DNA of 64,000 bases, taken from the IMG/VR virus record IMGVR_UViG_3300042319_002356, positions 26,768-90,767 of that record. One strand, given 5' to 3'. This document shows, in pieces, positions 878 through 22,315 of this stretch (its first letter is position 1; each line of letters begins with the position of its first letter). The translations under genes and the position numbers were made by a program. This DNA is from a virus. A model generated the notes under the pieces. It was given only the letters and a program-made list of their open reading frames with translations, did no database searches and had not been told where the DNA came from.

Positions 878-904
878 TATATATTTTTTTAAATTTCAAA
901 TTAT

Positions 905-1399: not shown

Positions 1400-1448
1400 C
1401 ATTTACATTGGGTGTTAACTTATTATTTTTATTTAAAATAAATTATAT

Positions 1449-2540: not shown

Positions 2541-3182
2541 TTATTTATCTTTTGGATGAGTCGTTGACCGACGATATAACATCTTAATATCAAAACCTTT
2601 ATTTGTTAAAATACGATATAGTTCTTTTTTATGGGCAATATCTTCAGAATAACTGATTAAATAATCAGTTTTTTTGTTTTCTAAACAATATCTTTGTAGT
2701 TCATTTAAAAACCTCTTACTCTCAAAGTCGGTTTTACATGAGTAAACTTTGATTATTTCATCAGATTGGAATACGACTTTATTATTTATTTTAAAGACAG
2801 ATTTCAAATCTTTATTTTTTGAAAATTCATTAATTACCTCTAAGAAAGTTAGTTTCTTTTTATTTTTAATATCGTAAACTCTTTCTTCATATTTGAAATT
2901 TTGAAGTTTGATTATCATATAGTCAGTACCCTCAACCTTATGGTCAATGTTCCTACCGAACTCATCACGATATATTGTTGACGATAATTTACCACCTAAT
3001 TCTAAAACTGCTATCTCAAATTTACACTCTTTACCATTCTCAAATTCAACAGGAAAATATATGTTTTGATTTGAAATAAAATTGTTGTAGAATTTAAAGC
3101 AGTTGTCTTTACCAATAAATTTCTTTATTATTTTTTGTCTTAATTTATTTTTAAATAAAACTACTAAAAAATTTGTAAGCAT
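2541..3182 (-). CDS. Hypothetical protein
   Basis: 213 aa ORF divergent from dnaJ. Confidence 0.65.
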   Translation of the reverse strand: MLTNFLVVLFKNKLRQKIIKKFIGKDNCFKFYNNFISNQNIYFPVEFENGKECKFEIAVLELGGKLSSTIYRDEFGRNIDHKVEGTDYMIIKLQNFKYEERVYDIKNKKKLTFLEVINEFSKNKDLKSVFKINNKVVFQSDEIIKVYSCKTDFESKRFLNELQRYCLENKKTDYLISYSEDIAHKKELYRILTNKGFDIKMLYRRSTTHPKDK

Positions 3183-4125
3183 GAAAGATTATTATTCAAT
3201 ATTAGGCTTAAATGATAAGGCAACTGAAGAAGAAATAAAGAAAACATATCGTCAGTTGGCGAAAGAATATCATCCAGATAAAAATCCTGACGGTGCTGAA
3301 AGATTTAAAGAAATTTCTGAAGCTTATGAAACTCTTTCAGACCCTCAGAAAAAATCGGATTATGATAACCGTAAGAACAATCCATTTGATAATATGGGGG
3401 GTGGTGGTAATCCATTTGACATATTTAGCCAAATGTTTGGTGGAAGAGGTCAAAAATCTAAAAGACGAGGAACCGATAAGGTAGTTAATATTGCAATCAC
3501 AATTGCTGAGTCATACTTGGCAGTAGAGAAAGTTATTGATTATGTTAGAAACGTTAAATGTGACCCTTGTAATGGGTCTGGTGGGGAGAAACAACAGTGT
3601 AGTAGATGTGGGGGTAGGGGACAAATAATATTCAAAACAGGAACAGGATTTTTTGGTCAAGTTATGGCTCAAACATGTGACCAATGTCAAGGTAGAGGAG
3701 TGGTATTTAAAAATGTGTGTCAAACTTGCAAAGGAGGTGCCGCAGTTCCAAAATCTGAAAAAATACAAATTAATGTCCCACATGGTATTGATAACGGTGA
3801 ATTATTAAGAGTGCAAAATATGGGAGATTTTCAGGATGGAGGATATGGAGATTTGATTGTTAGAGTTTCACTTGCTCAAGGAGAATCAATGTACAAAGAA
3901 GGTGATAACCTATTCTTTGATATAATATTAACATTAGATGAATTAAAGAAAGGTGAGTTTGACGTGGCTCATCCAGAAGGTAAATTAACCATCAAATTGC
4001 CAAATACCCTAACAACCCAAACTCCGTTAAGAGTTAAGGGTAAAGGGTTTAAACGTAATAGTCTTGGAGATTTTTACTTGAATATAGATTTAAGTATTGA
4101 TAGAACTCAATTAAACAATAATTGA
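3181..4125 (+). CDS. dnaJ: DnaJ (Hsp40) co-chaperone
   Basis: Starts MKDYYSILG; J-domain HPD motif, G/F-rich linker, four CxxCxGxG-type repeats. Confidence 0.95.
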   Translation: MKDYYSILGLNDKATEEEIKKTYRQLAKEYHPDKNPDGAERFKEISEAYETLSDPQKKSDYDNRKNNPFDNMGGGGNPFDIFSQMFGGRGQKSKRRGTDKVVNIAITIAESYLAVEKVIDYVRNVKCDPCNGSGGEKQQCSRCGGRGQIIFKTGTGFFGQVMAQTCDQCQGRGVVFKNVCQTCKGGAAVPKSEKIQINVPHGIDNGELLRVQNMGDFQDGGYGDLIVRVSLAQGESMYKEGDNLFFDIILTLDELKKGEFDVAHPEGKLTIKLPNTLTTQTPLRVKGKGFKRNSLGDFYLNIDLSIDRTQLNNN

Positions 4126-4471
4126 ATTAGTTTGATTGTTCCGTAAATACTCGTACCTAAAAAGTAAATTGAAAAAATAATTGGCCAAAACAGACTGTTC
4201 TTTAATTTTTCACAAGCCTTACATTTTTCTTCTTTCAAATTGATTTTGTTTTCCATATTTGAAGTTTATTTATAAATAACCCATTTGTCAATTGATATTT
4301 TCATTATCTTTGTAAAATGGAAAATGAAAAGTTACAATTGAATGTACGGCACGTGGCACAGATTGTTAGACGTAATATGATAACCCGTGTAAAACCATCG
4401 GGTAAAGTGTATAAGCGTAATAAAAAGGTTGATATGATTAACGATTAACCTTATATTTTATAAAAAAAATT

Positions 4472-5311
4472 ATGCTGTCATACATCGGTGGAAAAAGTAA
4501 AATTGGTAAATGGATTGTTCCATTCTACCCAAAAGATATGGAGACATATGTTGAAACATTTGGTGGAATGTTTTGGTGTTTCTATAATATGAATTTAAAA
4601 GATTACCCAAATCTAAAAAGAGTTGTTTATAACGACTTCAATCCATTAAACTACAACTTGTTTATGTGTTTACAAAACCCTAGTGTTTTGTTGTCCGCAA
4701 TCAATTCAATTCCCTGCCAACAGATGGGTGAGGAAGTTACTCCATCAATTTATAAAGAACAATTTCAATCATTCCAGAAGGAGATATTTGGGGAGGGATT
4801 TACAATTAACTATCCTGATTATGATGTTGCTGCAAAATATGCGTATGTCCTAACTCAAGTATTCAGTGGTTCCAAACCTGAGACATCTTCATTTATTGAT
4901 TTAAAAGGGAAGTACAAATCAAAATATCTTACATTCAGAGATAAGTTGTCTAAACCAGAATGGGTTGAACACTTTAATAAGATTAGTCATTTCAGATTGG
5001 GTGACTTTGAAGATGTTATTAAAGAGTTTGATAGTCCAACAACTTATTTTTATGTTGACCCACCCTATTGGAAGACTGAGAATTACTACTCAAATCACGA
5101 CTTTGATAGAGAGGACCATGAAAGATTAGCTAATTGTTTAAAAAATATTCAAGGTAAGTTTTCATTATCATATTACGATTTCGTACTTTTGCACGAATGG
5201 TTTCCCGAAGACCAATATAAGTGGGAGAAGAAACAATTTGCAAAGGCGGCCGCCGCAAAGAAAGGAACTACTCAAAATATGGGGGAAGAACTGTTAATTA
5301 TGAACTATTGA
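4472..5311 (+). CDS. DNA adenine methyltransferase (Dam/D12 class)
   Basis: YIGGKS, ETFGG and DPPY motifs. Confidence 0.9.
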   Translation: MLSYIGGKSKIGKWIVPFYPKDMETYVETFGGMFWCFYNMNLKDYPNLKRVVYNDFNPLNYNLFMCLQNPSVLLSAINSIPCQQMGEEVTPSIYKEQFQSFQKEIFGEGFTINYPDYDVAAKYAYVLTQVFSGSKPETSSFIDLKGKYKSKYLTFRDKLSKPEWVEHFNKISHFRLGDFEDVIKEFDSPTTYFYVDPPYWKTENYYSNHDFDREDHERLANCLKNIQGKFSLSYYDFVLLHEWFPEDQYKWEKKQFAKAAAAKKGTTQNMGEELLIMNY

Positions 5312-5334
5312 TATATTTATATAAAAAAAATAAT

Positions 5335-7179
5335 ATGAAATTACTTGATACTCTCAAAAAAAACATTATTCTAGAAGTTTCTGAAAAAGTTAAGAAACAA
5401 CTTATTGATAGATACAAGAATGTTGAGAATGTAACTGATGATGAAGATACAATCGTGTCATATTTAAATGACTTTGAAAAATATAAAAACGGATTACCAT
5501 CTGATAAAAGAGATTTGACAAGGAGAGATTTCACTTATGCCGAATTAAAATCTTTAATTGATGGTAAGAGACAAACAAAAACGACTGGTGACTTATTTAC
5601 CGACTTTAAAGAGAAGGCGAAAGAAAGAGGAGAGAAAGTAAGTGACTCGGAACTTAGAATGTTGTTGAAGAAATTCAATGAGGTTAAGTCAAAATTACCT
5701 GAGAAGTATCAAAACCCTTTGAAATTCAAATATTTGGATTTAGTAAAGTTGATTGGTGAAACTTATCAAAAATTAATTACACCTATCTTGTTGGAAAAAT
5801 TCAAGAAAGAGAATAGTAATTTGACTGATGACCAAATATTATTTTATATTACCCAATATTTAGAAATTTATCCTGAAATTCCATTTAAAACCAAACCGGC
5901 AAATCAAATGTCATTTACCGAGTTTGAGCATTTGATTGATGGAATTATGGCTAAAAAATCTCCAAAAGAAAGAGAATCTAATTCTGATATTGAAGCTATC
6001 CCAACTGTGTATAAGGATAATAACCTAACGATTTTTGCACCGAAGAAGAAAAACGAATGTATTACACTACAACACGGAAGAAGTTGGTGTACAAGTAGAA
6101 TGGGTGGAGGTAATTTGTATTACAACTATCGTTTAGGTAATGAGAGAACATTGTATTATGTTGTTGATGAAGATTTACCATATGATGATTTGAATTTTGC
6201 GTCAGTAATTCTTGTTGACCCTTATGGTGGTATGGCACTCGCTGATGGCTCAAACTCTGGAAAATATAGTGGACACCAAAATGTTCCGTGGAGTGATATC
6301 ATTTCAAAAATACCTAAGTTAAAAGGATTACAGGATTTGTTAAAACCTGAACCATTAACTGCCGAAGAAAAAGAGTTAATTAGAAAATACCAAAGTGTTA
6401 GAGTTCCTGATGATAGAGAATTAAGTACTCTTGGAGACGACAAAGATATTGAATTGTGGATGGAGGTTAATAGCCCAAGAATTTCAAGTTTTCAATATTC
6501 AAATCTTTCTTCGGAATTACAGAAAAAATATATCGCACTTGGATTTGATTTAAATTCTGAACAAATCCAATCATCAAAACCTGAAGTTTTAAAATACTAC
6601 ATTAGTAAAAAAGTTGAAAGTATTAAAACTAAAGGATTAGGTTCATTAACTGAACAAGATATTGCATTATTGAATACTCCGGTATTAGCAAAATTAAAAG
6701 AGGAATTAAAACCAAAATTGGGTCAATCATTAACTGCTGGTAAAGGTGAATTATTGGAAGTTGAATTCCCAAGAAGTGATAACTCTAAATTTGTTGCACT
6801 ATATGGGTTTAATGAACTATTTGAAATGGCTGACCCAAATGTTGATTCAATCATGATTACTAATAAGAGTGATGTGAAAATGGCATTTGACATTCCACCA
6901 TCAATTGGAAGATTTACAAAGGCTGACTCTATCTTCTTTAGTAATATTATTAAAAGTTTACCTGAAGAAATTGCCCAATGTACACAGTTGAATTTCTTAT
7001 CGTTACCTGATAACAAATCTTTGGAGACGTTACCTTGGAATGCGATTAATTCAATTGAATCATTAGGTTTCTTGAATTTAGATGGTAATTCTAATTTGGA
7101 ACTTCCTGAAGAATTCCATAGAAATTGGAAGAGTGGTGACTTTTCAAACGAAGGATTCTATATTAGAAACGAAGATTAA
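5335..7179 (+). CDS. Large protein with a central WCTS-motif domain and C-terminal leucine-rich repeats
   Basis: LPEEIAQCTQLNFLSLPDNKSLETLP is LRR-like; the central domain resembles ORF 49576. Confidence 0.7.
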   Translation: MKLLDTLKKNIILEVSEKVKKQLIDRYKNVENVTDDEDTIVSYLNDFEKYKNGLPSDKRDLTRRDFTYAELKSLIDGKRQTKTTGDLFTDFKEKAKERGEKVSDSELRMLLKKFNEVKSKLPEKYQNPLKFKYLDLVKLIGETYQKLITPILLEKFKKENSNLTDDQILFYITQYLEIYPEIPFKTKPANQMSFTEFEHLIDGIMAKKSPKERESNSDIEAIPTVYKDNNLTIFAPKKKNECITLQHGRSWCTSRMGGGNLYYNYRLGNERTLYYVVDEDLPYDDLNFASVILVDPYGGMALADGSNSGKYSGHQNVPWSDIISKIPKLKGLQDLLKPEPLTAEEKELIRKYQSVRVPDDRELSTLGDDKDIELWMEVNSPRISSFQYSNLSSELQKKYIALGFDLNSEQIQSSKPEVLKYYISKKVESIKTKGLGSLTEQDIALLNTPVLAKLKEELKPKLGQSLTAGKGELLEVEFPRSDNSKFVALYGFNELFEMADPNVDSIMITNKSDVKMAFDIPPSIGRFTKADSIFFSNIIKSLPEEIAQCTQLNFLSLPDNKSLETLPWNAINSIESLGFLNLDGNSNLELPEEFHRNWKSGDFSNEGFYIRNED

Positions 7180-7224
7180 TAATTATTTGGTTAATTGACT
7201 AAACTTTTTTATTTTTGTAAAAAA

Positions 7225-7512
7225 ATGGCAAGAATGAAAAACATAGATGTTGAAATTTACTTTAGTCAGTTGCATAGTTTCTTTGAAAATAATCCTAACG
7301 ATTTAATATCCCTTATCGGAAAATCCGATAGGGATATTTTTTATGAAAAACTTAAAGACCTTGCATATACCAATTACGAGAATGGTGATGATATTACTTT
7401 AACTAACCAACAGTTAATGGGTGTTGTATTGGAAGTGTTAGATATTAATAGGGAGAAACCTGTTGACAAAACTTTTTTTGAAACAAAATTAGGAAAAGTT
7501 TGTATGAATTGA
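7225..7512 (+). CDS. Hypothetical protein
   Basis: ORF of about 95 aa. Confidence 0.6.
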   Translation: MARMKNIDVEIYFSQLHSFFENNPNDLISLIGKSDRDIFYEKLKDLAYTNYENGDDITLTNQQLMGVVLEVLDINREKPVDKTFFETKLGKVCMN

Positions 7513-7566
7513 TTTTTTGCTTATCTTTGTACTCACAAAACAAGTAAATAATCTAAAATAAACAAT

Positions 7567-8325
7567 ATGAACACACCAATTTCTTTTGACAACTTAAAGA
7601 CAATCTGTCCAGCAGCATTCGCAACAAAACCTTCTGACAAGGTTTCAGACAAGTATTCATTCGTTCCAACAGTTGAAGTAATTGAGAACTTCCAAAAAGA
7701 AGGGTGGAATGTGTTTTCAGCACAACAAAGAGGTAGTGGTTCATATGGAAGACATATGATTCGTCTTCGTAACGGTGACCTCCCACAAGTTGGAGACTCT
7801 TTGATTGAAGCAATCATTACGAACTCACACGACGGAACTGCTAAGTTGAATATTAGTTCAGGTTTGTATCGTTTGGTTTGTTCTAACGGTTTGGTAATCC
7901 CACAAGGTGTATTTGAATCAATTCAAGTTTTACACAAGAACATTGAGTTCCAAGACGTTAAAGAAATCAGTAATCAAATCTCTGAAACTTTACCACTCAT
8001 TCAAGGTTCAATGAAGACAATGCAAGAGCGTATCTTGACTTTTGATGAGAAGCGTGATTTCGCAAAAGAAGCGATTGAGTTACGTTGGGAAAACAACAAG
8101 AATGTTAAAAACATTTCTTTGAACGATATGATTATCCCAAAACGTCAAGATGACATGGGTGATGATATGTGGAGAGTATTTAACGTGGTTCAAGAGAAAT
8201 TGGTTCGTGGAGGTTTGATTTACAAAACCGACTCAGGTAGAAATGTCCGCACTCGTCAGTTGACAGATGTGGTAGGTAACACCAAGTTTAACCGTGAATT
8301 GTGGGAGTTGGCATCATCTTATTGA
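7567..8325 (+). CDS. DUF932/DUF945-family protein
   Basis: TNSHDGT, GLYRLVCSNGL and WRVFNVVQE motifs; TATCTTTG promoter upstream. Confidence 0.85.
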   Translation: MNTPISFDNLKTICPAAFATKPSDKVSDKYSFVPTVEVIENFQKEGWNVFSAQQRGSGSYGRHMIRLRNGDLPQVGDSLIEAIITNSHDGTAKLNISSGLYRLVCSNGLVIPQGVFESIQVLHKNIEFQDVKEISNQISETLPLIQGSMKTMQERILTFDEKRDFAKEAIELRWENNKNVKNISLNDMIIPKRQDDMGDDMWRVFNVVQEKLVRGGLIYKTDSGRNVRTRQLTDVVGNTKFNRELWELASSY

Positions 8326-8354
8326 TGCCACCCCTTCACTAAAAAATTAAAATT

Positions 8355-8594
8355 ATGAAAGCAAAGTTAGAATTTGATTTGGATGATGTTGATGATAGAA
8401 TGGCACACTTACGTTGTGTCAAATCAACAGATATGGCGTTGGTTTTGTGGGAAATGTCATTGAATATGCGTAAAAGAGTTACATCGGGTTATGATGAAAA
8501 GGATGACTTTTACAGAGGTGTGGATGCGGTATTTGAAAGATACAATGAGTTAATGCAAGAACATAATTTAGACCCTGAAGAATTAATAAGATGA
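8355..8594 (+). CDS. Hypothetical protein
   Basis: 79 aa ORF. Confidence 0.6.
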   Translation: MKAKLEFDLDDVDDRMAHLRCVKSTDMALVLWEMSLNMRKRVTSGYDEKDDFYRGVDAVFERYNELMQEHNLDPEELIR

Positions 8595-9199
8595 ACATAA
8601 AATTCAAGGATACTTTTTTTGAAAGTTTCAAAAGAATGATTAATCGGGAAAGATGGTATTGGAAAACTTGGGACTTGTTCAGATATGACATCCCAAGATT
8701 TTTCCGTAACCTGTGGTTATTCCGTAAAAACTTATGGAATCACACCTGGTATAATGGTGACAGTTCGGTTTTGCCTTGGGTTAAAACTGCTGTTGATGAT
8801 ATGGCTTGGAGAATTGAAAAATATGGGCACGAGGTTGATGAAAGTCGTTTGAAGAAAGTTGCGAAGATGAGACGATTATCTTATTTGATTGATGTTTGTG
8901 TCAATGACACTTTCATTGAGGAGGCGGAAAAAGAGTTGGGATTTGAGTATGTTTATTACCCATTTGAGTTTGAAGAAATTTCAGGTAGTGAAGATTTATA
9001 CCAATTAAAACAAAATGAAAACCCAACGGACAAAGAGAATAATTCAAAAATTCTTAAACGGTCTCATCAGATTCAAAAAGAATATTGGGAGGAACTATGT
9101 GCAATTATCAAAGGACCTGACTACGATGAATTAAGAAACTCTGAGGAAGGTTGGGATGAAAAATACGATGGAAGTGACCTAAGAGCTTGGTGGGACTAA
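8591..9199 (+). CDS. Hypothetical phage protein
   Basis: 202 aa ORF ending in WWD. Confidence 0.7.
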   Translation: MNIKFKDTFFESFKRMINRERWYWKTWDLFRYDIPRFFRNLWLFRKNLWNHTWYNGDSSVLPWVKTAVDDMAWRIEKYGHEVDESRLKKVAKMRRLSYLIDVCVNDTFIEEAEKELGFEYVYYPFEFEEISGSEDLYQLKQNENPTDKENNSKILKRSHQIQKEYWEELCAIIKGPDYDELRNSEEGWDEKYDGSDLRAWWD

Positions 9200-10527: not shown

Positions 10528-11589
10528 ATGAATGAAGTATTGAACAAATATTTTGAGGAAGGGTTGGTGTATAAACAAATACATCCGACTCTTCCTTTGA
10601 CTATATGGAATTATTCTGAAAAAGTTCAGTATGACGGACTTTTTGATGATGTAACCCTACAAACTCGTGGATTAGTTACTGATGCAAATGGGTCAGTCGT
10701 TGCCCGACCATTTCGTAAGTTCTTCAATATGGAAGAAGGGAAACATACCGCAACTCCTGACTTTGATGTTTATGATAAGATGGATGGGTCTTTGGGTATA
10801 TTATTCAATTACGAAGGTGAATGGATAATGGCGACTCGTGGGTCTTTCACTTCTGACCAAGCGGTTAGGGGATTTGAAATGTTGAAGAACTATGACTACG
10901 AGAAACTTCACAAAGGTTACACTTACTTATTTGAGATAATATATAATGAGAACCGTATAGTGGTAAAATATCCATTTGAAGATTTGGTATTACTTGGAAT
11001 GATAGAGACCAAAACCGGATACGAAGTTGATTTGTATGGTGAAGGAAATGATGTTAGATTGAAGAACTTAATATCTAATCTTGGTTTCAAAGTCGTCAAA
11101 AAATATGATGGAATACTGGATTATACCGAATTGAAAGGTATGATAGGTAATGACGAAGAAGGATTTGTTGTTCGTTTCTCTAATGGAGACAGAATGAAGA
11201 TAAAGGGTGAGGAGTATCTTCGTCTTCATAAGATAATGACCAATGTATCTACCACTGCGATATGGGAAATGTTGAGTGAGGGTAAGGATGTATTGGAATT
11301 ATTGAAAGATGTTCCTGATGAATTTTATCAAAAGATAAAGATGTATGTTTCTGATTTAAGATATAATCACTATCGTTATTGGGACTATGCTGGGAAGATA
11401 CATCAGTATTTCAGATATGGTAAGTATAATGATAGAGACCCTGAGCCAACCAAGAAAGAATTTGCCTTACATTTGCAAGAATGTGGAACTCACCCAAAGA
11501 TAAAAGCATTATGTTTTTTGATGTGGGATGGTAAAAATGTTGATAAAGTAATATGGAATTATTTAAAACCTGAATATAAAAAATTATGA
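10528..11589 (+). CDS. T4 Rnl1-like RNA ligase
   Basis: KMDGSLG (motif I), FEI, EGFVV and MKIK nucleotidyltransferase motifs. Confidence 0.9.
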   Translation: MNEVLNKYFEEGLVYKQIHPTLPLTIWNYSEKVQYDGLFDDVTLQTRGLVTDANGSVVARPFRKFFNMEEGKHTATPDFDVYDKMDGSLGILFNYEGEWIMATRGSFTSDQAVRGFEMLKNYDYEKLHKGYTYLFEIIYNENRIVVKYPFEDLVLLGMIETKTGYEVDLYGEGNDVRLKNLISNLGFKVVKKYDGILDYTELKGMIGNDEEGFVVRFSNGDRMKIKGEEYLRLHKIMTNVSTTAIWEMLSEGKDVLELLKDVPDEFYQKIKMYVSDLRYNHYRYWDYAGKIHQYFRYGKYNDRDPEPTKKEFALHLQECGTHPKIKALCFLMWDGKNVDKVIWNYLKPEYKKL

Positions 11590-11876
11590 AAAAAGATGTG
11601 AATTTTGGAACACCTATAGTTGTGTTTATGTTAATATTGTTTTTGTTTGTTTTTGTCGGTTTATTCTTAAAAGAAAATAGTCGGACAAAGGTAACACACG
11701 TCACCAGGGAAAAACATTTGGTAACAAATGTTAAAAGGCATATTCCTCGTAGTGTTCAGGATGAAATGAATCTGTATTATGATGTAACAATTGACGATAC
11801 CAACACTTTCAAAACATTGCATCACTATCAGGTTGGTGATACAATTTATTTTGAAATTTATAAGATTAATAAGTAA
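11586..11876 (+). CDS. Small membrane-anchored protein
   Basis: N-terminal hydrophobic helix. Confidence 0.6.
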   Translation: MKKDVNFGTPIVVFMLILFLFVFVGLFLKENSRTKVTHVTREKHLVTNVKRHIPRSVQDEMNLYYDVTIDDTNTFKTLHHYQVGDTIYFEIYKINK

Positions 11877-12160
11877 GATATGAAAGTAAGTATGAACGGA
11901 CTGAGAAATCAGTTATTGAGAAATTACAACTCTTTGGTTTATAAGTTAAACAAAAGAATTGATGGTGAGGATATCAATGACTTAGAAGTTTATGACATCC
12001 AACGAGAGTTAGAAGGACTCAGAAGTTGTATTGTTACACTTGCTTTTACATCTATGGAAGGTGATGACGGATGGGATTCTATGGATGAAAATACATATTT
12101 TGAACAATTTAATCCTGAAGAAGATTTGGTTGAAGAATAATTTTGTTGTATCTTTGCACT

Positions 12161-12859
12161 ATGATATTAAAAATTGAAAAAGATAGTAACGGAATATTCC
12201 CAAACATTTGGATATGTTCTGACCCGCATTATAATCACAAGAACATTTGTCGTGGAACTACTAACTGGAGGACACTTGATAACGAGGTTCCTGTTGAACA
12301 AACTCGTGACTTTGATACACTTGAAAGAATGAACCAATCAATCCTTGATGGAATAAATTGGAATGTTGGACAGGATGATGTGTTGATTTGTCTTGGTGAC
12401 TGGTCATTTGGTGGATTTGAGTTTATCAAACAATTCCGTGATAGAATTGTGTGTAAGAATGTTCACTTGGTTTTAGGTAATCACGACCAGCATATTGAGA
12501 GAAACAAGGAGAATAGTCGGTCATTGTTTAGTTCCGTATCTGAGTATCTACGAATTGTTGTGATGGAACCAATCAAAAAAGGTCAAACCAAACGACAAGA
12601 GTTCGTATGTATGCACTACCCAATCCAAAGTTGGGATGGGATGAATAAAGGTATTCCTCACTTACACGGACACGTTCACTTACCAAATGAAAGAAAGTTC
12701 GGTAATGGAAAAAAAATGGATGTTGGTTTTGATGGACATCCTGAATTTCGTCCTTATAATTTGTTGAGGGAAATTGTCCCGTTAATGAAAAATCGTGAGC
12801 AGTTGTCAGATATGCCAAATGACCACCACCTTGAAAGATTGTTAAACTCTGATAAATAA
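12161..12859 (+). CDS. Calcineurin-like metallophosphoesterase
   Basis: SDPH, LGD, GNHD and HGHVH motifs. Confidence 0.9.
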   Translation: MILKIEKDSNGIFPNIWICSDPHYNHKNICRGTTNWRTLDNEVPVEQTRDFDTLERMNQSILDGINWNVGQDDVLICLGDWSFGGFEFIKQFRDRIVCKNVHLVLGNHDQHIERNKENSRSLFSSVSEYLRIVVMEPIKKGQTKRQEFVCMHYPIQSWDGMNKGIPHLHGHVHLPNERKFGNGKKMDVGFDGHPEFRPYNLLREIVPLMKNREQLSDMPNDHHLERLLNSDK

Positions 12860-13151
12860 GTTATGACTGAACAAGAAATGGTAAGTGAAATCATTAGGAT
12901 TGAAACGATATGTACTAGAGCCGTCCTTCAAGGGCATAAAGCATCTAACGATGACGTATATCAACCATTAAGAGAAAAAGCTAAACATTATAGAGAAAAA
13001 TTAGGAATAAAATGAAAATAATACCATTCTTTGAAACAACCTGGGACGAGGACTTTAAACAAGTTGTTCTTATACCAACAATATTCCTAACCAAAAGTTA
13101 CGGAACTAGATATAACATTGGAATTAATTTTTTATGTTTTGACTTTGGACT

Positions 13152-13553
13152 ATGGATACTCATAAGAAAATAAATGAGATTAAGGACTTAAAGGGTAATT
13201 ATGAATATTACCTTACCATTGGTAAACTTAGGAAGTTTTTACAGGAACATCCTGAATTACCCGACGATGCTCTTGTCCTTTCCCAAAGAGTTGAAGATGT
13301 TTATTATGAACAACACGGATGGGGCGTGGTGTTGAAAGAAGGTGACCATTATGATATGGTTAAAACCCACAACATTAGAATGGAAGAGGAAATCCGTAGG
13401 AGAAAGAACGGAGAACACCCAAAGTATGATATGGAAGACCCTTCACAATACATTCAGGAATTGACCGATGATTTAAAAGACCAATACCATCCTGTATTTT
13501 CTTGTACGAAATATAAAGATGATGATAATCTTTATTTGTATTTACACTATTAA
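13152..13553 (+). CDS. Hypothetical protein
   Basis: 133 aa ORF. Confidence 0.65.
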   Translation: MDTHKKINEIKDLKGNYEYYLTIGKLRKFLQEHPELPDDALVLSQRVEDVYYEQHGWGVVLKEGDHYDMVKTHNIRMEEEIRRRKNGEHPKYDMEDPSQYIQELTDDLKDQYHPVFSCTKYKDDDNLYLYLHY

Positions 13554-13569
13554 TTTATATATTTGCAAT

Positions 13570-13956
13570 ATGAAAACACTTTATTTAGTTAGAGGATTAC
13601 CAGGAAGTGGTAAAAGTACATTTGCACAATCATTAGATTGTCCTGTATTTGAAGCGGATATGTTTTTTGTAAACTCACAAGGGGTCTATAACTTTGACTT
13701 CACTAAGATTAAAGATGCTCACGCTTGGTGTCAGGAAATGGTTGAGGACCATATGTTTAACCAACACGAGAAGATTGCGGTATCAAACACTTTCACACAA
13801 GAATGGGAAATGAAAGCGTATTATGATATGGCAAAAACTTATGGTTATACCGTATTTTCAATCATTGTTGAAAACAGACACGGAGGTGAGAATGTTCACG
13901 GAGTTCCTGCAGATAAGTTAGAAGTAATGAAAAACAGATTTGAAGTTCAGTTATAA
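13570..13956 (+). CDS. P-loop polynucleotide-kinase-like protein (AAA_33 type)
   Basis: Walker A GLPGSGKST; VSNTF and HGVP motifs. Confidence 0.85.
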   Translation: MKTLYLVRGLPGSGKSTFAQSLDCPVFEADMFFVNSQGVYNFDFTKIKDAHAWCQEMVEDHMFNQHEKIAVSNTFTQEWEMKAYYDMAKTYGYTVFSIIVENRHGGENVHGVPADKLEVMKNRFEVQL

Positions 13957-14285: not shown

Positions 14286-14312
14286 AAACCCCTCACTTTT
14301 GAGGGGTTTTTT
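14286..14312 (+). terminator. Intrinsic terminator
   Basis: AAACCCCTCA-cttt-TGAGGGGTTT followed by T. Confidence 0.85.
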
Positions 14313-14336
14313 GTTTATTTCAAGTATTTATCAAAT

Positions 14337-15434
14337 ATGAAAATAAACACCAAAATCTCTTTACTTTTCAAAACCATATCAAATTTAGTTTTTGGTGAAA
14401 CAAAAAAAGAAATGTCTGAAACTGATAAGTTTATTGACAGAGCGACAATTGTTTCTATGACTGATGAGAAAGGTAGAATTACCTATGTTAATGAAAAGTT
14501 TGAAAAGATATCAGGTTATAAATTAGATGAGGTTAAAGGTAAAGACCACTCAATAGTTAATTCGGGATTACAACCCGATGGGTATTGGAGAAATATGTAT
14601 AAGACGGTATTGAAGGGTGAGATATGGAATGATATTGTTTGTAATAAAGCAAAAGATGGTAGTCATTACTGGGTTGATACATACATTAGAGCTCGTTTTG
14701 ATGAGGACGGGAAGTTAGAAGGGTTCTCATCAATTAGACAAGATGTTACCAAAATTATGGAACAATCTGTTGAACTAGATAGGAAGAACACCTATTTAGA
14801 ACACGCTGCCAAGATATTAAGACACGATATGCACTCTGGTATTAACACTTATATGCCAAGAGGTCTTAGTTCGTTGGAGAGAAGAATAACTAACGAAGAC
14901 ATTACCAATCTTAAAATTGAAGCCCCACTTAAAATGATTAAAGAGGGACTCAAACATTCTCAGAAAGTTTATAGAGGAGTTTATGAGTTTACCAATCTAG
15001 TGAAAAAGGATGTGGTTCTTAATAAAGAACAATGTAACATCAAGGACATTCTCAAGGACTATTTGTCTTCGACGGCCTACGTCAGTCAGGTAATATTAGA
15101 TGATAATTTACCATCTGTGGAAGTAAACGAACCATTATTTTGTACTGCGGTTGATAACCTTATCCGTAATGGATTAAAGTATAATGACTCAGACACCAAG
15201 TTTGTTAAAATATATTCTGATGAAAACTCAATTTACATTCAGGATAATGGTAGAGGTATCACTCAGGAAGATTTTGAACACCTATCTAAACCATATGTAA
15301 GAAAAGAGGGACAGAAAGAAAGTGGAAGTGGATTAGGATTGAACATTTGTGTTGCAATTCTTAAAGAACACGGGTTTGAAATTACCTGTGAGAAAAATGA
15401 AACTGGAACTAAAATGAAAATTAAATACAAATGA
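14337..15434 (+). CDS. PAS-domain sensor histidine kinase
   Basis: PAS/PAC (TDEKGRITYVN...KDGSHYWV), H-box RHDMH, N-box NLIRNGLKY, DNGRG, GSGLGL. Confidence 0.92.
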   Translation: MKINTKISLLFKTISNLVFGETKKEMSETDKFIDRATIVSMTDEKGRITYVNEKFEKISGYKLDEVKGKDHSIVNSGLQPDGYWRNMYKTVLKGEIWNDIVCNKAKDGSHYWVDTYIRARFDEDGKLEGFSSIRQDVTKIMEQSVELDRKNTYLEHAAKILRHDMHSGINTYMPRGLSSLERRITNEDITNLKIEAPLKMIKEGLKHSQKVYRGVYEFTNLVKKDVVLNKEQCNIKDILKDYLSSTAYVSQVILDDNLPSVEVNEPLFCTAVDNLIRNGLKYNDSDTKFVKIYSDENSIYIQDNGRGITQEDFEHLSKPYVRKEGQKESGSGLGLNICVAILKEHGFEITCEKNETGTKMKIKYK

Positions 15435-16042
15435 AAAAGTTATTATTAATCTGTTTTATGTTAATGTCTTTTGTTGGATATACACAATACCCAATAAAGA
15501 CAATCTTTAAGGGTGATTCAGTTATTATCTTAACCATTGAGCAATCTGAAAAGATTAATGAAATGTTAGATAAAACATCAAAATCTATTAAAGATAGCAA
15601 TAAAAAAACTAAAGAATATGAATCGGAAATTCAAAAGTTAAATACCGTATTGAATAACCAAAATGCGTATATTGATAGTTTATCTAATCTTTTATTACAA
15701 AGATGGACTTGTAATGAAGACATTTACGATAGCATATGGACATGGGCTCTAGGACCTTCAATCATCTACACCATGTATCCTGATGATAGTACGGTTTATG
15801 TAATGGACTTATCACATTATTATATGACAACTAATGATTTTGGTATAGTAATGGCAAGAATGACAGACAAAGAATATCTTAAATACAAAGCATTTATTTC
15901 AAAGTATGGACTTAGTGAGGAAGCGTTTTGGAGATTTAGAAATGAGATGAAAGTAAAAAGACTTAATGATGATAAGATGAAAGATAAGAAAGAATGGAAA
16001 AGTAAAATGGTTCTTGAAAAGAAAGAGGAGGAAGAGAAATGA
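15431..16042 (+). CDS. Exported coiled-coil protein in the signalling operon
   Basis: Signal-peptide-like N-terminus; overlaps both neighbouring kinase genes. Confidence 0.7.
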   Translation: MKKLLLICFMLMSFVGYTQYPIKTIFKGDSVIILTIEQSEKINEMLDKTSKSIKDSNKKTKEYESEIQKLNTVLNNQNAYIDSLSNLLLQRWTCNEDIYDSIWTWALGPSIIYTMYPDDSTVYVMDLSHYYMTTNDFGIVMARMTDKEYLKYKAFISKYGLSEEAFWRFRNEMKVKRLNDDKMKDKKEWKSKMVLEKKEEEEK

Positions 16043-17385
16043 GAAATTATTTAATATCTACACTATTTTTAGTTAGTCTTCAATCTTACTCACAAGATAC
16101 CACAGACTTCTCAATTAAACCTAATTGGGTTAGTCCAGAAAAAAATCTAGAAGTAATTCAAAAGGATAGTGTATTAAAATCTAATATCATTACTGATGTG
16201 ATTGATAGAATAATACCTAATTGGGCACCACCCGAAAAAGTATTTGAACAACCAAAAGAAGAACTTTCACCTGAGGATGTGAAACAATTAGAAGAAGACG
16301 TGAAATTCATGTCAGATTTACCACAATCATACAAACAAGTGTCCAAAGAGGATTTAAAAAATGTTTTGGTTTTGATTGATAATAAAATAGTTCAATTAAA
16401 GGCCGAATTGGATGCGTTGTTAAAAGCAAGAAATGCTAACCAGGAAGTTATCAAATCAAAACAAAGTACTTTAACGGTATTAGAAAAAGAAAAGAGTATT
16501 ATCAATTTAACTTTAACTGAAGGTGAATTAAAAGATGAAAACGGAAATTTAATTGGTCAAAACGATGAGTTAAAGATAGAACAAGATAAACTTAAAAAGT
16601 ATCTTTATTTTGCTCTCGGTGGAATCGCCTTACTTGGATTAATTGTTGCGGTAGTATTACAAAGAAAGAAGATACAAGTTCAGGATGTTGAGATTCAAAA
16701 TCAACTTGATGAAATTAATAAGAAGAATAGTTACTTGGAACACGCTGCGAGAATTATCCGACATGATATGCACTCAGGTATTAACACATATATGCCAAGA
16801 GGTATTAGTTCATTAGAGAAAAGATTGACCACTGAGGACATTCAAAAGTTAAAAATTGAAGGAGCTTTGAAGATGGTTAAAGAAGGTCTTAACCACACCC
16901 AACGAGTATATAAAAGTGTATACGAATTTACCAATCTTGTTAAACAAAATGTAGTATTAAATAAAACTATGGTTGATGTTAAGGACTTGGTATGGAAATA
17001 CATTTCACCCAATTCATATAGTTCTCAGGTTGAGATATCTGATTTAGGTCAATTAGAAGTTAATGAGATTTTATTTTGTAATGCGGTTGAGAACTTAATT
17101 AAAAACGGACTAACATATAATGATAGTCAGGATAAGAAAGTTAAAATTTATTTGGACGAGGATTATATAATCGTAGAGGATAATGGTAAAGGTTTTTCTC
17201 AGAAACAATTTGAGAAACATCTTAAAAAATATGCGACAAAGAAAGAGTTTAGTGAAGATGAGAAAGGGTTGGGGTTAAACATTTGTGTTGCAATATTAGA
17301 AGAACATGGTTATAAACTCTCCTGTGAAAAAATTGAGACAGGAACTAAAATGAAAATAAAAATAAAAAAAGAAAAAAATGATTGA
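16039..17385 (+). CDS. Membrane-bound sensor histidine kinase
   Basis: Signal peptide, coiled coil, one TM helix, RHDMHSGINTYMPRG H-box, HATPase boxes. Confidence 0.9.
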   Translation: MRNYLISTLFLVSLQSYSQDTTDFSIKPNWVSPEKNLEVIQKDSVLKSNIITDVIDRIIPNWAPPEKVFEQPKEELSPEDVKQLEEDVKFMSDLPQSYKQVSKEDLKNVLVLIDNKIVQLKAELDALLKARNANQEVIKSKQSTLTVLEKEKSIINLTLTEGELKDENGNLIGQNDELKIEQDKLKKYLYFALGGIALLGLIVAVVLQRKKIQVQDVEIQNQLDEINKKNSYLEHAARIIRHDMHSGINTYMPRGISSLEKRLTTEDIQKLKIEGALKMVKEGLNHTQRVYKSVYEFTNLVKQNVVLNKTMVDVKDLVWKYISPNSYSSQVEISDLGQLEVNEILFCNAVENLIKNGLTYNDSQDKKVKIYLDEDYIIVEDNGKGFSQKQFEKHLKKYATKKEFSEDEKGLGLNICVAILEEHGYKLSCEKIETGTKMKIKIKKEKND

Positions 17386-17809
17386 TTCAATTTTGTTGGT
17401 GGATGATGAAGATTTGTTTCACCTGGTATTTGAAGATAGTTGTTCGTTGTTGGACATCACTCTATCTTTAAAATCACTGAACTCTGCGGATGAGGCAGCT
17501 AAACTATTTGCGGAATGGCAGAAAAATCCAAACGGAAGACCTGAATGTGTGTTTGTGGATTTAAATATCATCGGGTCATCTTTTGATGGTATTGAACTTA
17601 TTAGAAAGATTAACTTTGAGTATGGTAATCACGTTGTTATTGGTATCATATCCTCAAGTAACGAACCTGAAGAACAGGCAAAGGCAGTTCAAGCAGGTGC
17701 TCAATTTTGGATTATTAAGTCAGATGAGATTGAACCAAGATTGGAAGAGTTCAAAAAAGATTATGACGGATTTAAAAACAGAACACAATCGTTTAAAGTA
17801 TATAAGTAA
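17378..17809 (+). CDS. Single-domain response regulator (REC)
   Basis: LLVDD acidic pocket, phosphoacceptor VFVDLN, SSS and conserved K. Confidence 0.9.
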   Translation: MIDSILLVDDEDLFHLVFEDSCSLLDITLSLKSLNSADEAAKLFAEWQKNPNGRPECVFVDLNIIGSSFDGIELIRKINFEYGNHVVIGIISSSNEPEEQAKAVQAGAQFWIIKSDEIEPRLEEFKKDYDGFKNRTQSFKVYK

Positions 17810-18492
17810 TGGTAATTGATAAGAATACAAAGAAAGAATTGATTGAAATCTTCCAAACTAAAAACATTGGTTTGGAAGGTAATATCATTAAGCTCATTGA
17901 CCCTGAAGGTGATGAGGAGTTTTCTGAGTATTTAAAACAATGTGTTGATAAGGACGGAGCAACAAGACGCAAACGACTTGAAATGACTAAGAAAGTCCAA
18001 GTTCAAAATGCTGAACTTACCAAATTGAATGATGAGAATCAAAGAATGATGGAAGAACTTCAAAATACTTTAACAAGTATTGAAGAACAAAAAAGTCAAA
18101 TTGAAGCTCAAAATCATGAGTTAATTGAGTGGAAAAAAGAAAACGAAAAAATAGGCGCCGAACTTGTTGAAGCAATGAAGCAATCGGAACAAGCGAGAGT
18201 TATTGCTGAAAACGCAAAGAACGAAGCCGAGAACAACTTGGATTTAATTCAAAAGAAAACTCAATTTGAGTTGATAAATAATATTGTTAAGGTTGCCTTA
18301 TATGTCATCATTGGTGTTGGAGGGATAACTACTGGAATTTATGTTTATTCTATGTCAATAGGAATGGATACGGACATTATCGGCTCCACTTGGAGTAATA
18401 TGTTTGGTATTCTATTAACAAATAGTTTCAGTATTGTCGGAACAATACTTGGTGTAAAATATGGGACAAGTCCTAACAAAGATGATAAATAA
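17809..18492 (+). CDS. Coiled-coil protein with two C-terminal TM helices
   Basis: Heptad-rich region plus two hydrophobic segments. Confidence 0.7.
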   Translation: MVIDKNTKKELIEIFQTKNIGLEGNIIKLIDPEGDEEFSEYLKQCVDKDGATRRKRLEMTKKVQVQNAELTKLNDENQRMMEELQNTLTSIEEQKSQIEAQNHELIEWKKENEKIGAELVEAMKQSEQARVIAENAKNEAENNLDLIQKKTQFELINNIVKVALYVIIGVGGITTGIYVYSMSIGMDTDIIGSTWSNMFGILLTNSFSIVGTILGVKYGTSPNKDDK

Positions 18493-18510
18493 ACCTAAAA
18501 AATAAAAAAA

Positions 18511-19020
18511 ATGAGTAGATTAAAAAAAATGTTATTTGGAGAAACACCTTATGTGAAGGTGGAAGATAAAAATCGTTTCTATTATATGTTGCAACAAATG
18601 CAAGCTAATAGATGGAAGATTACAGGGATTGTATTGTTCTTGTTCTTCTTCATAATTTTTGGTATCAATATGGCAGTAATGTTCAACATTGAAATTGCTG
18701 AAAACTGGAAGGAGATGTTATTAATCCTTTTGGGTGCTTTTGTTGGTAACCTTAATAAAGTTGTGGATTATTGGTTTAACTCTGAAGATAGAGATAAAAT
18801 GTTAATCCAAAAGGTTGACGAGGAAGACGGAAGTAGTTTATCCAACGTAAGTGAATTCCCAACAGCTCCAAGACCTCCACAAGAACCAATTATTATTGTT
18901 AAAAAAGAAGAAGTTGTTTCTGAACCTGAACCAATGGTTTATGAAGAACCACTTCCATATGAGGAACCTTTGGCCGATGATGGATATGAAACTCCACCTT
19001 CAGATGAAGAAAATATCTAA
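18511..19020 (+). CDS. Two-TM membrane protein with an acidic, Pro-rich tail
   Basis: Two hydrophobic helices; VVDYWFNS. Confidence 0.7.
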   Translation: MSRLKKMLFGETPYVKVEDKNRFYYMLQQMQANRWKITGIVLFLFFFIIFGINMAVMFNIEIAENWKEMLLILLGAFVGNLNKVVDYWFNSEDRDKMLIQKVDEEDGSSLSNVSEFPTAPRPPQEPIIIVKKEEVVSEPEPMVYEEPLPYEEPLADDGYETPPSDEENI

Positions 19021-19027
19021 AAAAAAA

Positions 19028-19057
19028 GAAACCCGGTTTGATAAATCGGGTTTTTTG
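19028..19057 (+). terminator. Intrinsic terminator closing the signalling operon
   Basis: GAAACCCGGTTT-gat-AAATCGGGTTT followed by T. Confidence 0.75.
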
Positions 19058-19072
19058 TTTTACATTTGTGGT

Positions 19073-19462
19073 ATGAAAAACTTTGACCTCAATAAATTTA
19101 TGTTTGGATTCTTTATAACGGCATTAATTGTATTTGGAATCCTTTTAACTTATATCTCCTTTAATCTGTATGAGAGACCAACTCCTCCAAAGAATGAATT
19201 GAAGATTCAAAAGAACGTTGATGAACCAGTTGTTAATGACACAACAATTGTTGAACAAAAAGGGGATAACCTTTGGCCAATTAAAGTTGTGAGTGTTGAA
19301 AAATCGTATGAAAAAGATACTCCTAAATGGCAAGTAGTTACTGAGAATGGTGTGATGTTCTACACCAATAAGAAACCAAAGGTTGGTGATATTGCGTTTT
19401 ACATAAACGATAATGATGATATAACTAATAAGAATGGTAGAGTGGAAATTACAAGACAATGA
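19073..19462 (+). CDS. Membrane-anchored hypothetical protein
   Basis: N-terminal TM helix downstream of a TACATTTG promoter. Confidence 0.6.
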   Translation: MKNFDLNKFMFGFFITALIVFGILLTYISFNLYERPTPPKNELKIQKNVDEPVVNDTTIVEQKGDNLWPIKVVSVEKSYEKDTPKWQVVTENGVMFYTNKKPKVGDIAFYINDNDDITNKNGRVEITRQ

Positions 19463-19696
19463 TAACTACATTGGTCTATACAAGAATTACATTCTTCGTG
19501 TAGAACAGATGGGTCCGCAGAAATGGTGGTGGGCTGTGTATAAGGACAACGAAGATTTATGTTACGATAACCCTTTTACAAGAAACTCTGAATATGGAAA
19601 AAAACTTGCAGAACAATGTGTCAGAGATGACGAAAGTGAAAGTTAGATTCCCAAATGAATCTTTTTTTCAGGAAATACCAATTGATTTAAGTATAT

Positions 19697-21445
19697 TTGT
19701 ACCACATAAAGAATTTGATGATGAAACATTCGGATATTACAAAGGAAACTACATCTCAGTCAGAAAAAACAACGGAAGTTATTTTTAAAGTTGTTTTACC
19801 TCAATACTTTACTCAATTTTTTGATAAAGTTGATGATAAAGATTTACCTGATGAGAATGATATTTTTGGTGCGAAATCATATATGGTTCGTTACGAAAAA
19901 GATGGAGAATATTATACATTAGGTAAATCAGATAGAACCGAAGAAACCCTAATCAAAAACTATGGTAACACTAGTTGTGAAAGTTACATTCGTAGGGTAA
20001 CTATTGTGGTTGAAAAATATGACGATAAGGTATCAATTAAATTATTTGACTTTACTAAACGAAGAGGATTTGGTAAGAAATACTTTAAGAAATCACCTAA
20101 TTGTATTTATCTTACATACAATAAAAAAACAAATGACTTATTCTACGGGACAACTACCAAAGTAAGACACAAAAGGTCGTCAACCATAAAGAGAAACAGG
20201 TTTGAGGCGGCCAAAAGGTTTTACGCTGCATTACACACTACTTGTGAAAATCTTAAAGCTAATTACTATGCCCAAGTTGACCCAATATGTTCTGATGAAA
20301 TAATCGTTAGTGCTATATCGGCAAAAACATTATCGTGGAATAAGTTTATTTCTGAGATTGACCCAGAGTTCTTCAACGAAAATTGTTATTTGGGTGAGGG
20401 GGAGAAGTTTTTCAAATATTATCTAACTAAACGTAATATCAAGTATCCTGATAATTTTGAACATTATATGTCTCTTAACAGAGTTGATTCGCGATTACTT
20501 AAAAAATCAGGTAGAAATCTAGTCGACGGAATTATGTTAAAATATGGTCTAACTGGTAAAAAAATAAAACGTGTATTACATAGTATTGATTCTCAAATAC
20601 ACACCCATGCAATAAAAGCATTTAGTGAAACTTTCGGTGAAGATATTCTTAAAAAAATTACTGATAACCAATTAAAAAAGTTATTAGAAATGTCTTATTA
20701 TGGTCTTACATTAGATTCTTACGGACTTAAATACTTTATAAATAATTGTTCTAAAAAAGAATATAACAATTTTTTTAAAATAGTTTTAATAGAACATATT
20801 GAAAACTCATCTGTTGATATTGCAACTTTGTTAGACCATTTAAGATTTTATAAATTTTTGAAAGAAGAAATGGAAACGGATGTTGAGTGGAAATCATATG
20901 ACCTTAAATCATTCAGAGAAGAACACGTTGACTACTCAACAGAGTACTCCAAGTTGAAAAATGTTCTATCTGTTAACAGGAAATACGGTGAAAAATTCAA
21001 AGAGAGTGTTAATGAGGTTTTTGAATATAACGGACAACAATATTACCCAGTGTTACTTGAAGAAAATAAGGATTACATACTAGAATCAGTTGTTCAATCA
21101 AATTGTGTGAGAACTTATGTTGAAAGTCCAAGTATGATTATTTCATTTAGAATCGGAGAACCTGATTCAGATGATAGAGCTAGTTTGGAATATAAGTTGA
21201 CAAAAAGAAATAATAGATTAAGATTAAATAGAGTTCAGAGTAGAATAAGATTTAACCAATCACTACCTGATGAGTTAGAAAACGTTTGTCAAATGTTTGA
21301 TTCATATTTGAATAGTTTGATGGATGATTTTGAAACTCCAAAATTAATAAAAGAAAGATTTTATGGTAACGAAGAGTTATCATTAGTGGAAGAAAAAGGT
21401 ATTTTTAAATGGAACGACAAGACAACAAACAATTTACTCTTTTAG
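19697..21445 (+). CDS. PcfJ-like domain protein
   Basis: C-terminal ESVVQSNCVRTY motif; start codon uncertain. Confidence 0.65.
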   Translation: MYHIKNLMMKHSDITKETTSQSEKTTEVIFKVVLPQYFTQFFDKVDDKDLPDENDIFGAKSYMVRYEKDGEYYTLGKSDRTEETLIKNYGNTSCESYIRRVTIVVEKYDDKVSIKLFDFTKRRGFGKKYFKKSPNCIYLTYNKKTNDLFYGTTTKVRHKRSSTIKRNRFEAAKRFYAALHTTCENLKANYYAQVDPICSDEIIVSAISAKTLSWNKFISEIDPEFFNENCYLGEGEKFFKYYLTKRNIKYPDNFEHYMSLNRVDSRLLKKSGRNLVDGIMLKYGLTGKKIKRVLHSIDSQIHTHAIKAFSETFGEDILKKITDNQLKKLLEMSYYGLTLDSYGLKYFINNCSKKEYNNFFKIVLIEHIENSSVDIATLLDHLRFYKFLKEEMETDVEWKSYDLKSFREEHVDYSTEYSKLKNVLSVNRKYGEKFKESVNEVFEYNGQQYYPVLLEENKDYILESVVQSNCVRTYVESPSMIISFRIGEPDSDDRASLEYKLTKRNNRLRLNRVQSRIRFNQSLPDELENVCQMFDSYLNSLMDDFETPKLIKERFYGNEELSLVEEKGIFKWNDKTTNNLLF

Positions 21446-21722: not shown

Positions 21723-22040
21723 ATGAAAAAAGTAATCAAAGAAGAAGTGGTTAGAAATTTAGAAAGTAATGGAACTTTCGTAGTTAAATTTGAAGCTGAT
21801 TGGTGCGGACCATGTAGAATGTTAACCGAAGTATTCAACGGAGTTGACAAAGAATTAAACGAACAATACCCATCTATTCAGACCTTTAGATTTGACATTG
21901 ATTCTGATGTGGAGTATGCTAAAAGTTTCAATATCAGAGGGGTACCAGTATTAATTGCATTCAAAGAAGGTAAAGAAGTTGGAAGAAAAGTAGGACTTAT
22001 TAGCGATAAACAAATCCTTGATTTTTATTCTACACTATGA
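21723..22040 (+). CDS. trxA: Thioredoxin
   Basis: WCGPC active site, cis-Pro GVP. Confidence 0.92.
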   Translation: MKKVIKEEVVRNLESNGTFVVKFEADWCGPCRMLTEVFNGVDKELNEQYPSIQTFRFDIDSDVEYAKSFNIRGVPVLIAFKEGKEVGRKVGLISDKQILDFYSTL

Positions 22041-22315
22041 AAGAGTTAGTTGTTTTTTCAATGAAGAGTTGTCCATTCTGTCAGATTATGAAGGACAAAT
22101 TAAATGAGGAAAACATTCCTTTCATAAACATGGACATTGAAGAACATGAAGAAGAGTATAAAATGTTTATGGAATTAGTTGAAGGTAATGAATTTGTCCC
22201 GGCATTAATGGTTATTGATGAGGATAATCCCGAACAAAGGATTACACCAATGGCTCCTGATAGGGATTATAAAACAATTGAAGAGGGTATTGAAAAAGTC
22301 AAAAATTTGCTGTAA
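22037..22315 (+). CDS. Glutaredoxin-like protein
   Basis: CPFC and FVP motifs. Confidence 0.85.
   Translation: MKELVVFSMKSCPFCQIMKDKLNEENIPFINMDIEEHEEEYKMFMELVEGNEFVPALMVIDEDNPEQRITPMAPDRDYKTIEEGIEKVKNLL

Follow-up and report, generated by a model that had tools for sequence, protein, structure and literature searches.

For a lytic phage, no life-history decision weighs more than when to lyse its host, and among the known lysis controls (holin clocks, antiholins and T4-type lysis inhibition) we know of none that works through kinase signalling. Class II holins or pinholins, such as the lambdoid S21, have two transmembrane segments (TMs) in an N-in/C-in arrangement, and single-domain response regulators act by protein contact, as in the pairs CheY-FliM and DivK-DivL/PleC. 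In T4 lysis inhibition, the holin T is blocked by the antiholins RI and RIII through direct periplasmic protein contact, with neither a kinase nor a receiver (PMC11413866). In Firmicutes, the two-component systems LytSR and LytST control the holin/antiholin-like genes lrgAB and cidAB, and LytR is a DNA-binding regulator that acts on transcription (PMC6997555). Here we describe an operon at positions 14,337 to 19,020 of a viral DNA stretch of 64,000 nt (positions 26,768 to 90,767 of IMG/VR record IMGVR_UViG_3300042319_002356; hereafter the window), which encodes two histidine kinases (HK1 and HK2), a stand-alone response regulator (RR), an exported protein (SP203) and two membrane proteins (TM227 and TM169). 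We consider it probable, though by no means certain, that the operon encodes a two-component phosphorelay of the phage, which acts not on transcription but on a holin/antiholin-like membrane effector that sets the time of lysis.

The direct basis of this reading comprises the anatomy of the operon, the intact catalytic motifs, an invariant gene linkage, domain swaps in the effector family and the adjacency of an endolysin in relatives. The features of the region are as follows.

14286..14319, + strand: upstream terminator, a 10-bp stem (hairpin 14286-14309) followed by a T-run, which ends the preceding unit
14325..14331, + strand: TATTTAT motif, 5 nt 5' of the HK1 ATG, a candidate late promoter or start-proximal expression signal
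14337..15434, + strand: HK1, a cytoplasmic PAS histidine kinase of 365 aa
15431..16042, + strand: SP203, an exported protein with a signal-like N-terminus, a long helix and a small alpha/beta C-domain
16039..17385, + strand: HK2, a membrane histidine kinase of 448 aa, paralog of HK1
17378..17809, + strand: RR, a stand-alone receiver of 143 aa without an output domain
17809..18492, + strand: TM227, with an N-terminal domain (N-domain), a helical stalk and a TM hairpin, the candidate holin/antiholin-like effector
18511..19020, + strand: TM169, a lineage-specific 2-TM protein with an acidic proline-rich C-terminal tail
19026..19066, + strand: operon-closing terminator, a 14-bp stem (hairpin 19026-19056) followed by a T-run
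19094..19646, + strand: two small downstream genes, for a 122-aa protein with an N-terminal TM and a 70-aa protein
19767, no strand: synteny breakpoint relative to the related locus L025, where homology ends

The anatomy given in the preliminary description, namely six co-oriented open reading frames (ORFs) flanked by terminators, with TATTTAT before HK1, is borne out, and the two hairpins are the strongest terminator-like ones of the region. The genes from HK1 through SP203, HK2 and RR to TM227 overlap by 4, 4, 8 and 1 nt, and TM169 starts 18 nt after TM227. Pfam returned nothing significant for SP203, TM227 or TM169.

A profile search with RR found relatives on >537 IMG/VR contigs, from which 84 viral loci, spanning 29-66% GC, were examined. 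RR lies immediately before TM227 in all 84, and a PAS kinase lies 5' of RR wherever upstream DNA is present. The other members vary among these loci: SP203 and HK2 are inserted together in about one third of them, whereas TM169 occurs in ~22, whether HK2 is there or not. This makes the triad of PAS kinase, RR and TM227 the ancestral unit, and the operon of this phage is an extended version of it, in which the SP203-HK2 pair and TM169 read as lineage-specific add-ons. Two 2-TM effectors had initially been proposed; the 84 loci retain TM227 as the only conserved effector and relegate TM169, which by hydropathy has two TMs and ends in an acidic, proline-rich stretch, to an addition of some lineages.

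The two kinases share a catalytic half and differ in their sensors. Pfam recognized PAS_9/PAS_3 (2e-11) and HATPase_c (2.7e-16, 60.4 bits; cut-off 26.4) in HK1, and HATPase_c (6.5e-12, 46.3 bits; cut-off 26.4) in HK2. Over 224 aa their cores share 61% identity and a common H-box, and their N-terminal parts are unrelated, in agreement with the duplication and sensor swap suggested earlier. The H-box RHDMHSGINTYMPRG is invariant across eight orthologs, and the N, G1 and G2 boxes (NLIRNGLKYN, DNGxG and GLGLNI) are invariant in orthologs as well. The alignment of the kinase core with HK853 begins at DHp helix 2 and includes the ATP-binding domain, and the register of the putative phospho-acceptor is at most 2 residues off His260 of HK853. 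Moreover, the two kinases hardly differ in their DHp helices, and therefore both should have the same receiver partner.

By hydropathy, HK1 has no TM and is cytoplasmic, with the PAS domain at about residues 37-140. HK2 has a signal-like N-terminus, an ectodomain of ~170 aa and one strong TM (residues 191-207) followed by QRKK. The nearest solved match of the HK1 PAS domain is the FAD-PAS domain of MmoS (PDB 3EWK; 9.2e-31, gapless over 115 residues), with further matches to Aer (PDB 8DIK; 3.6e-20) and NifL (PDB 2GJ3; 4.4e-10). The flavin pocket is shaped by T18, H53, N85 and R115 in Aer, which correspond to T103, H132, N164 and R195 in MmoS (PMC9668731). The equivalent residues in HK1 are T42, H71, N103 and R134; of the 69 PAS copies in the examined loci, 68 retain the pocket His, Asn and Arg, and the first position is Thr or Ala. 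Because the residues of the Aer/MmoS flavin pocket are kept, the HK1 PAS domain is likely a redox or energy sensor, and a flavin-based one would be the most specific reading. A cytoplasmic signal had been postulated from the outset; HK1 supplies the cytoplasmic PAS domain, and its kinship and pocket residues would narrow that signal to a flavin/redox type.

SP203 carries an N-terminal signal-like segment with a Gln after the predicted cleavage site. It was first described as an exported coiled-coil protein; the signal-like N-terminus fits the export, and the coiled coil comes from a low-confidence model alone (pLDDT 64). A comparison of SP203 with the HK2 ectodomain found no homology between them.

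RR matches Response_reg and no other Pfam family (37 bits; cut-off 30.2), and keeps the residues D9, D10, D61, S92 and K114, which are invariant across 9-12 orthologs. The protein consists of the receiver and a conserved C-terminal tail of ~28 aa, with no TM by hydropathy, so that it is assigned to the cytoplasm. Searches of Pfam and NCBIfam found no output or DNA-binding domain in RR, just as the preliminary description had stated. Judged from their motifs, the kinases and the receiver look functional, and the idea of a self-contained, intact kinase-receiver module on a phage withstands the analysis, with a membrane protein as its likely output.

RR is the most conserved member of the module, with 62-85% identity to the RR of the window across loci of 32-66% GC. 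This would also fit a reading in which RR targets a host component, such as kinases or regulators, the gliding or type IX secretion system (T9SS) machinery, or metabolism, whereas TM227 is an accessory that serves as phosphatase partner, sink or localiser. Several protein targets are common for single-domain receivers, as in CheY and DivK, and the phage encodes T9SS-sorted proteins, both of which lend this reading some weight. However, the wide GC range of the loci implies very different hosts and thus argues for a phage-encoded or universal target. In addition, the N-domain of TM227 occupies the position of a PAS/GAF sensor and precedes kinase cores in cells, as expected of an input that receives RR. 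We therefore regard a host target as improbable.

TM227 has two TMs by hydropathy, at residues 159-175 and 198-214. In an alignment of the family, the N-domain of ~60 aa (residues 1-60) is conserved, the stalk varies in length, and conservation is very high in the polar hairpin, where many positions of TM2 are invariant. The AlphaFold model (pLDDT 82.6) shows a small helical head and an uninterrupted helix that runs from residue 36 into TM1, which is joined to TM2 by a tight turn of 4 residues. Homologs number thousands in metagenomes; the family has no Pfam domain, and its Atlas clusters are labelled 96-100% viral. An exhaustive HMMER profile search grouped the family into 268 clusters at 50% identity, and a Pfam scan of the atypical clusters revealed proteins of GAF-stalk-hairpin, PAS-stalk-hairpin and PAS-PAS-stalk-hairpin architecture. 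Conversely, five clusters have a TM227-type N-domain before HisKA-HATPase, and in the cellular locus L013 an N-domain-HisKA-HATPase gene directly follows RR. These swaps and fusions put the N-domain at the position of a sensor domain and mark the hairpin as the signal output. Together with the invariant linkage of RR and TM227, the sensor-like position makes docking of RR on the N-domain the simplest model, and TM227 is well supported as the output of the module. Two new domains emerge from TM227, an apparent receiver-docking N-domain that cells reuse before kinase cores, and a conserved polar TM hairpin effector.

Two further proteins bear on the family. A longer fused form of TM227, a single protein of 458 aa from a word-index search, looks like a read-through gene call and was set aside. 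The metagenomic protein P0322 has a TM227-type N-domain fused to an ABC permease of FecCD type, either a gene-call fusion or a third type of output.

That the histidine kinase and receiver are typical cellular domains, and that homologous pairs of a multi-PAS histidine kinase and RR occur on the cellular Bacteroidota contigs L013 and L015, would suit a passenger operon: a host two-component system recently captured without a role for the phage, or a contig that is cellular or mis-binned. When the H-box peptides were scanned against 185,579 species genomes, no more than eight loci came up. Among those whose flanks were examined, at least two, L010 and L012 (the latter of 66% GC), have phage neighbours and are hence taken as mis-binned phage contigs, and two others, L013 and L015, lie in genuinely cellular DNA of Bacteroidota. 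Of 301 genomes sampled from that Bacteroidota class, a single one has the RR ortholog and a single one the TM227 N-domain. With cellular orthologs so scarce, and their identity to the phage proteins only 45-70%, the operon was not recently acquired from a host; the preliminary description had named a near-identical recent acquisition with a known function, or a cellular contig, as what would overturn it, and neither applies. On the viral side, RR recurs on hundreds of viral contigs, and relatives that share the operon carry Gp23, the T4-type capsid gene, and the large terminase TerL, which identifies the contig as viral rather than cellular; three related records of 291-322 kb are 97-100% complete. 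Passenger status is thus largely refuted and retains only a very small probability. We conclude that the module exists as an intact, conserved unit that is specific to phages.

At L013:4786-8167, the unusual H-box recurs in a multi-PAS kinase, after which come a 143-aa receiver, ~70% identical to the phage RR, and then the N-domain kinase; this order suggests a receiver-controlled kinase relay in cells.

Complete kinase-receiver modules had been called rare in lytic phages. This holds for the 50,697 GenBank phage records, in which blastn and tblastn found no match for the operon, HK2, RR or TM227, and fails for uncultured jumbo phages, given the spread of RR through IMG/VR. The searched literature gave no account of a phage-encoded kinase-regulator module coupled to lysis, and a survey of jumbo phages mentions only a different receiver, which is independent of a histidine kinase (PMC7824862).

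The link to lysis emerged from clustering of all genes that flank the module in the examined loci. Its commonest neighbour is an endolysin with GH19 and PG_binding_1 domains (phrog_181, 1.6e-66), present in 54 triad loci; in 23 of these TM227 is followed on its own strand, at a distance of 26-29 nt, by the start of the endolysin gene, the classical arrangement of a holin and its endolysin. The PAS-PAS one-component form of the hairpin, found on at least 253 viral contigs, has the GH19 endolysin in 53 of 80 loci, without a kinase or receiver nearby. The endolysin is therefore by far the commonest neighbour of two independently wired versions of the hairpin, and a holin or antiholin is the best-supported reading of TM227, as judged from gene order in relatives.

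The same loci leave room for a relay that is real and acts through TM227 on another membrane process: TM227 might control superinfection exclusion, transport or the membrane potential, or anchor and sequester the receiver, with the proximity of the endolysin due to clustering of late genes for membrane proteins. In 16 loci the GH19 endolysin lies 5' of the kinase rather than after TM227, and the polar conservation of TM2 would equally fit binding to a conserved membrane partner. Several further points weigh against a lysis effector, or against the relay that would drive it. About one third of the triad loci with room for a neighbour have no GH19 endolysin nearby, and the 90.8-kb record of this phage has no GH19 homolog. 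Synteny with L025 breaks at ~19767: from there on L025 encodes a GH19 endolysin and three small proteins, membrane-bound or exported, and in their place the window has an unrelated ORF of 575-582 aa (19697-21445) with no Pfam or PHROG match. Other small TM proteins adjoin the endolysin in relatives and could be the real holin. TM227 has no match to a holin family in Pfam, PHROG or NCBIfam; a Foldseek search of its model against the PDB gave only noise, and its size (227 aa, with a cytoplasmic part of ~150 aa) is atypical of a holin. As for the kinases, Pfam HisKA does not match the DHp region and HMMER leaves the H-box helix unaligned, and the phospho-acceptors His163 of HK1 and His242 of HK2 are assigned by the H-D-M-H-S motif and register alone.

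The two small genes at 19094..19646 sit between TM169 and the endolysin in close relatives, and a rearrangement at ~19767 has removed the endolysin from the side of the operon in this phage. As the endolysin is neither next to the operon nor elsewhere in the 90.8 kb, the link to lysis is drawn here from the relatives. The suggestion of lysis timing in the preliminary description thus gains from the adjacency in relatives and loses from its absence beside the operon of this phage. A search for Phage_holin_T (PF11031), made without a positive control, gave no match in G000, in G001 or in three relatives that are 97-100% complete. Given the recurrence of the endolysin and its spacing, we consider another membrane process unlikely, albeit the most serious of the alternatives.

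In the favoured reading, for which we infer flavin binding, phosphotransfer, docking of RR on the N-domain and the role in lysis, HK1 would read the redox or energy state of the host during infection through its cytoplasmic, flavin-type PAS domain. HK2 would add an input from the envelope side through its periplasmic ectodomain, probably helped by the exported SP203, and both kinases would act on the single stand-alone RR. Once phosphorylated, RR would dock on the small N-terminal domain of TM227, and the signal would run down the continuous helical stalk to the polar two-helix membrane hairpin, which, as a holin or antiholin, would set the time of lysis. These phages would then probably time the burst of their host by phosphorylation signalling. 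A bolder proposal, which we put forward tentatively and hold a little less likely than not to be right, is that holins or antiholins gated by signals form a class of their own, with TM227 as its first member. In this class a stalk would couple the opening of the hairpin to interchangeable cytoplasmic inputs, PAS/GAF in the one-component forms and docking of phosphorylated RR here, and lysis would be timed post-translationally through sensing of the respiratory redox state of the host (flavin PAS) and of the envelope (HK2 and SP203).

The signals around the operon suggest when it may be expressed. In the whole record, TATTTAT is followed by an ATG within 3-6 nt in 14 of 32 copies on the + strand, compared to 1 of 18 on the - strand. 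The spacing of TATTTAT to the ATG hints that the transcripts may be leaderless or nearly so. In the relative G001, TATTTAT also lies 5' of TerL and of the head-gene block, and thus late expression is suggested for the genes that it precedes. The form (A/G)TATTTAT + 4-5 nt + ATG recurs at gene starts of the window, for example at 22853, 25862, 33376, 43720, 49564, 54561 and 60362. A gene for an RNA polymerase sigma factor (phrog_351, 7e-52), possibly tied to TATTTAT recognition, lies in the record outside the window (L008:1930-2730). Four runs labelled RNA-Seq, a label that is a guess, two of the runs being probably DNA, yielded contigs that cover parts of the operon, some of them with 98-99% identity over 17450-18539, and little of the flanks; such cover is biased, and we draw no conclusion on expression from it.

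The source genome is that of an uncultured freshwater T4-like jumbo phage of ~290 kb, not of a cell. Its record of 90.8 kb, with a CheckV completeness estimate of 31%, encodes a primase, an exonuclease, an SbcC-like protein, a sigma factor, a T4-type RNA ligase, DnaK and an M23 peptidase, and the phage DNA recurs near-identically across many lake-water metagenomes. Two proteins of the record, encoded in the window at 43716-45308 and 48511-49521, carry C-terminal sorting domains of T9SS (CHU_C and Por_Secre_tail) and would be phage cargo for the T9SS of the host; moreover, both exported proteins of the operon have a Gln after the predicted signal cleavage site. These two features point to a host among the Bacteroidota.

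Other genes of the record stand apart from the module. Just 5' of the operon, at 10528-13956, lies an RNA-repair-like cluster that resembles the Rnl/Pnk tRNA-repair set of T4, with a T4-type RNA ligase (phrog_562, 2e-66), a calcineurin-like phosphoesterase (12143-12859) and an AAA_33 P-loop kinase (13519-13956). A small thioredoxin-like ORF (WCGPC) adjoins a small glutaredoxin-like one (CPFC) at 21723-22315, as read from their translations. DnaK/Hsp70 is encoded at 30856-32724, with top phage matches of 64-68% from uncultured megaphages of 630-735 kb, and lies within 1 kb of the signalling module in some relatives. Outside the window, at bases 1-8931 of the record (L007:1-8931), an ORF of at least 2976 aa is open at the 5' end of the record and weakly matches phrog_15511.

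If the favoured reading is true, a two-component pathway owned by a phage and wired to a membrane protein of the lysis cassette would be a new layer of regulation, by which viruses sense the redox or energy state and the envelope state of the infected cell and adjust the time of burst by phosphorylation. The module is conserved on hundreds of uncultured lake jumbo-phage contigs, with one-component PAS/GAF versions in other phages, and its parts are compact and orthogonal enough for direct testing in vitro and in heterologous lysis assays.

Compared to the flavin-binding PAS domains of Aer, MmoS and NifL (PDB 8DIK, 3EWK and 2GJ3; PMC9668731), that of HK1 keeps the Thr/His/Asn/Arg pocket and differs in being coupled to a phage kinase, with Ala in place of Thr at the first position in many orthologs. 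Similar to CheY and DivK, and to the class I pair HK853-RR468 (PDB 3DGE), the module has a stand-alone receiver, a core of HisKA-like DHp and HATPase, and an output that would work by docking. Here, however, the partner is a new phage-specific protein of N-domain, stalk and TM hairpin, and the H-box RHDMHSG has diverged too far for Pfam HisKA to recognize it. TM227 would resemble class II holins in its two predicted TMs with a short, putatively periplasmic turn, its glycine/polar-rich helices and, in many relatives, an endolysin directly 3'. It differs from them in a cytoplasmic, sensor-receiving extension of ~150 aa, replaced elsewhere by PAS/GAF, and no holin family matches it in sequence or fold.

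Like LytSR, the module would couple a two-component system to holin/antiholin-like membrane proteins and to the energy or redox state of the cell. Pfam and NCBIfam gave no match to the LytTR regulator or to the LrgA/CidA family in RR, TM227 or TM169. Unlike LytSR, the module is phage-encoded, its RR has no DNA-binding domain and its control would be post-translational. Lysis inhibition in T4 is alike in that a T4-like phage regulates a membrane lysis protein in dependence on a signal, with an exported or periplasmic input, whereas in the module described here the signal would come from the cytoplasmic side through a phosphorelay.

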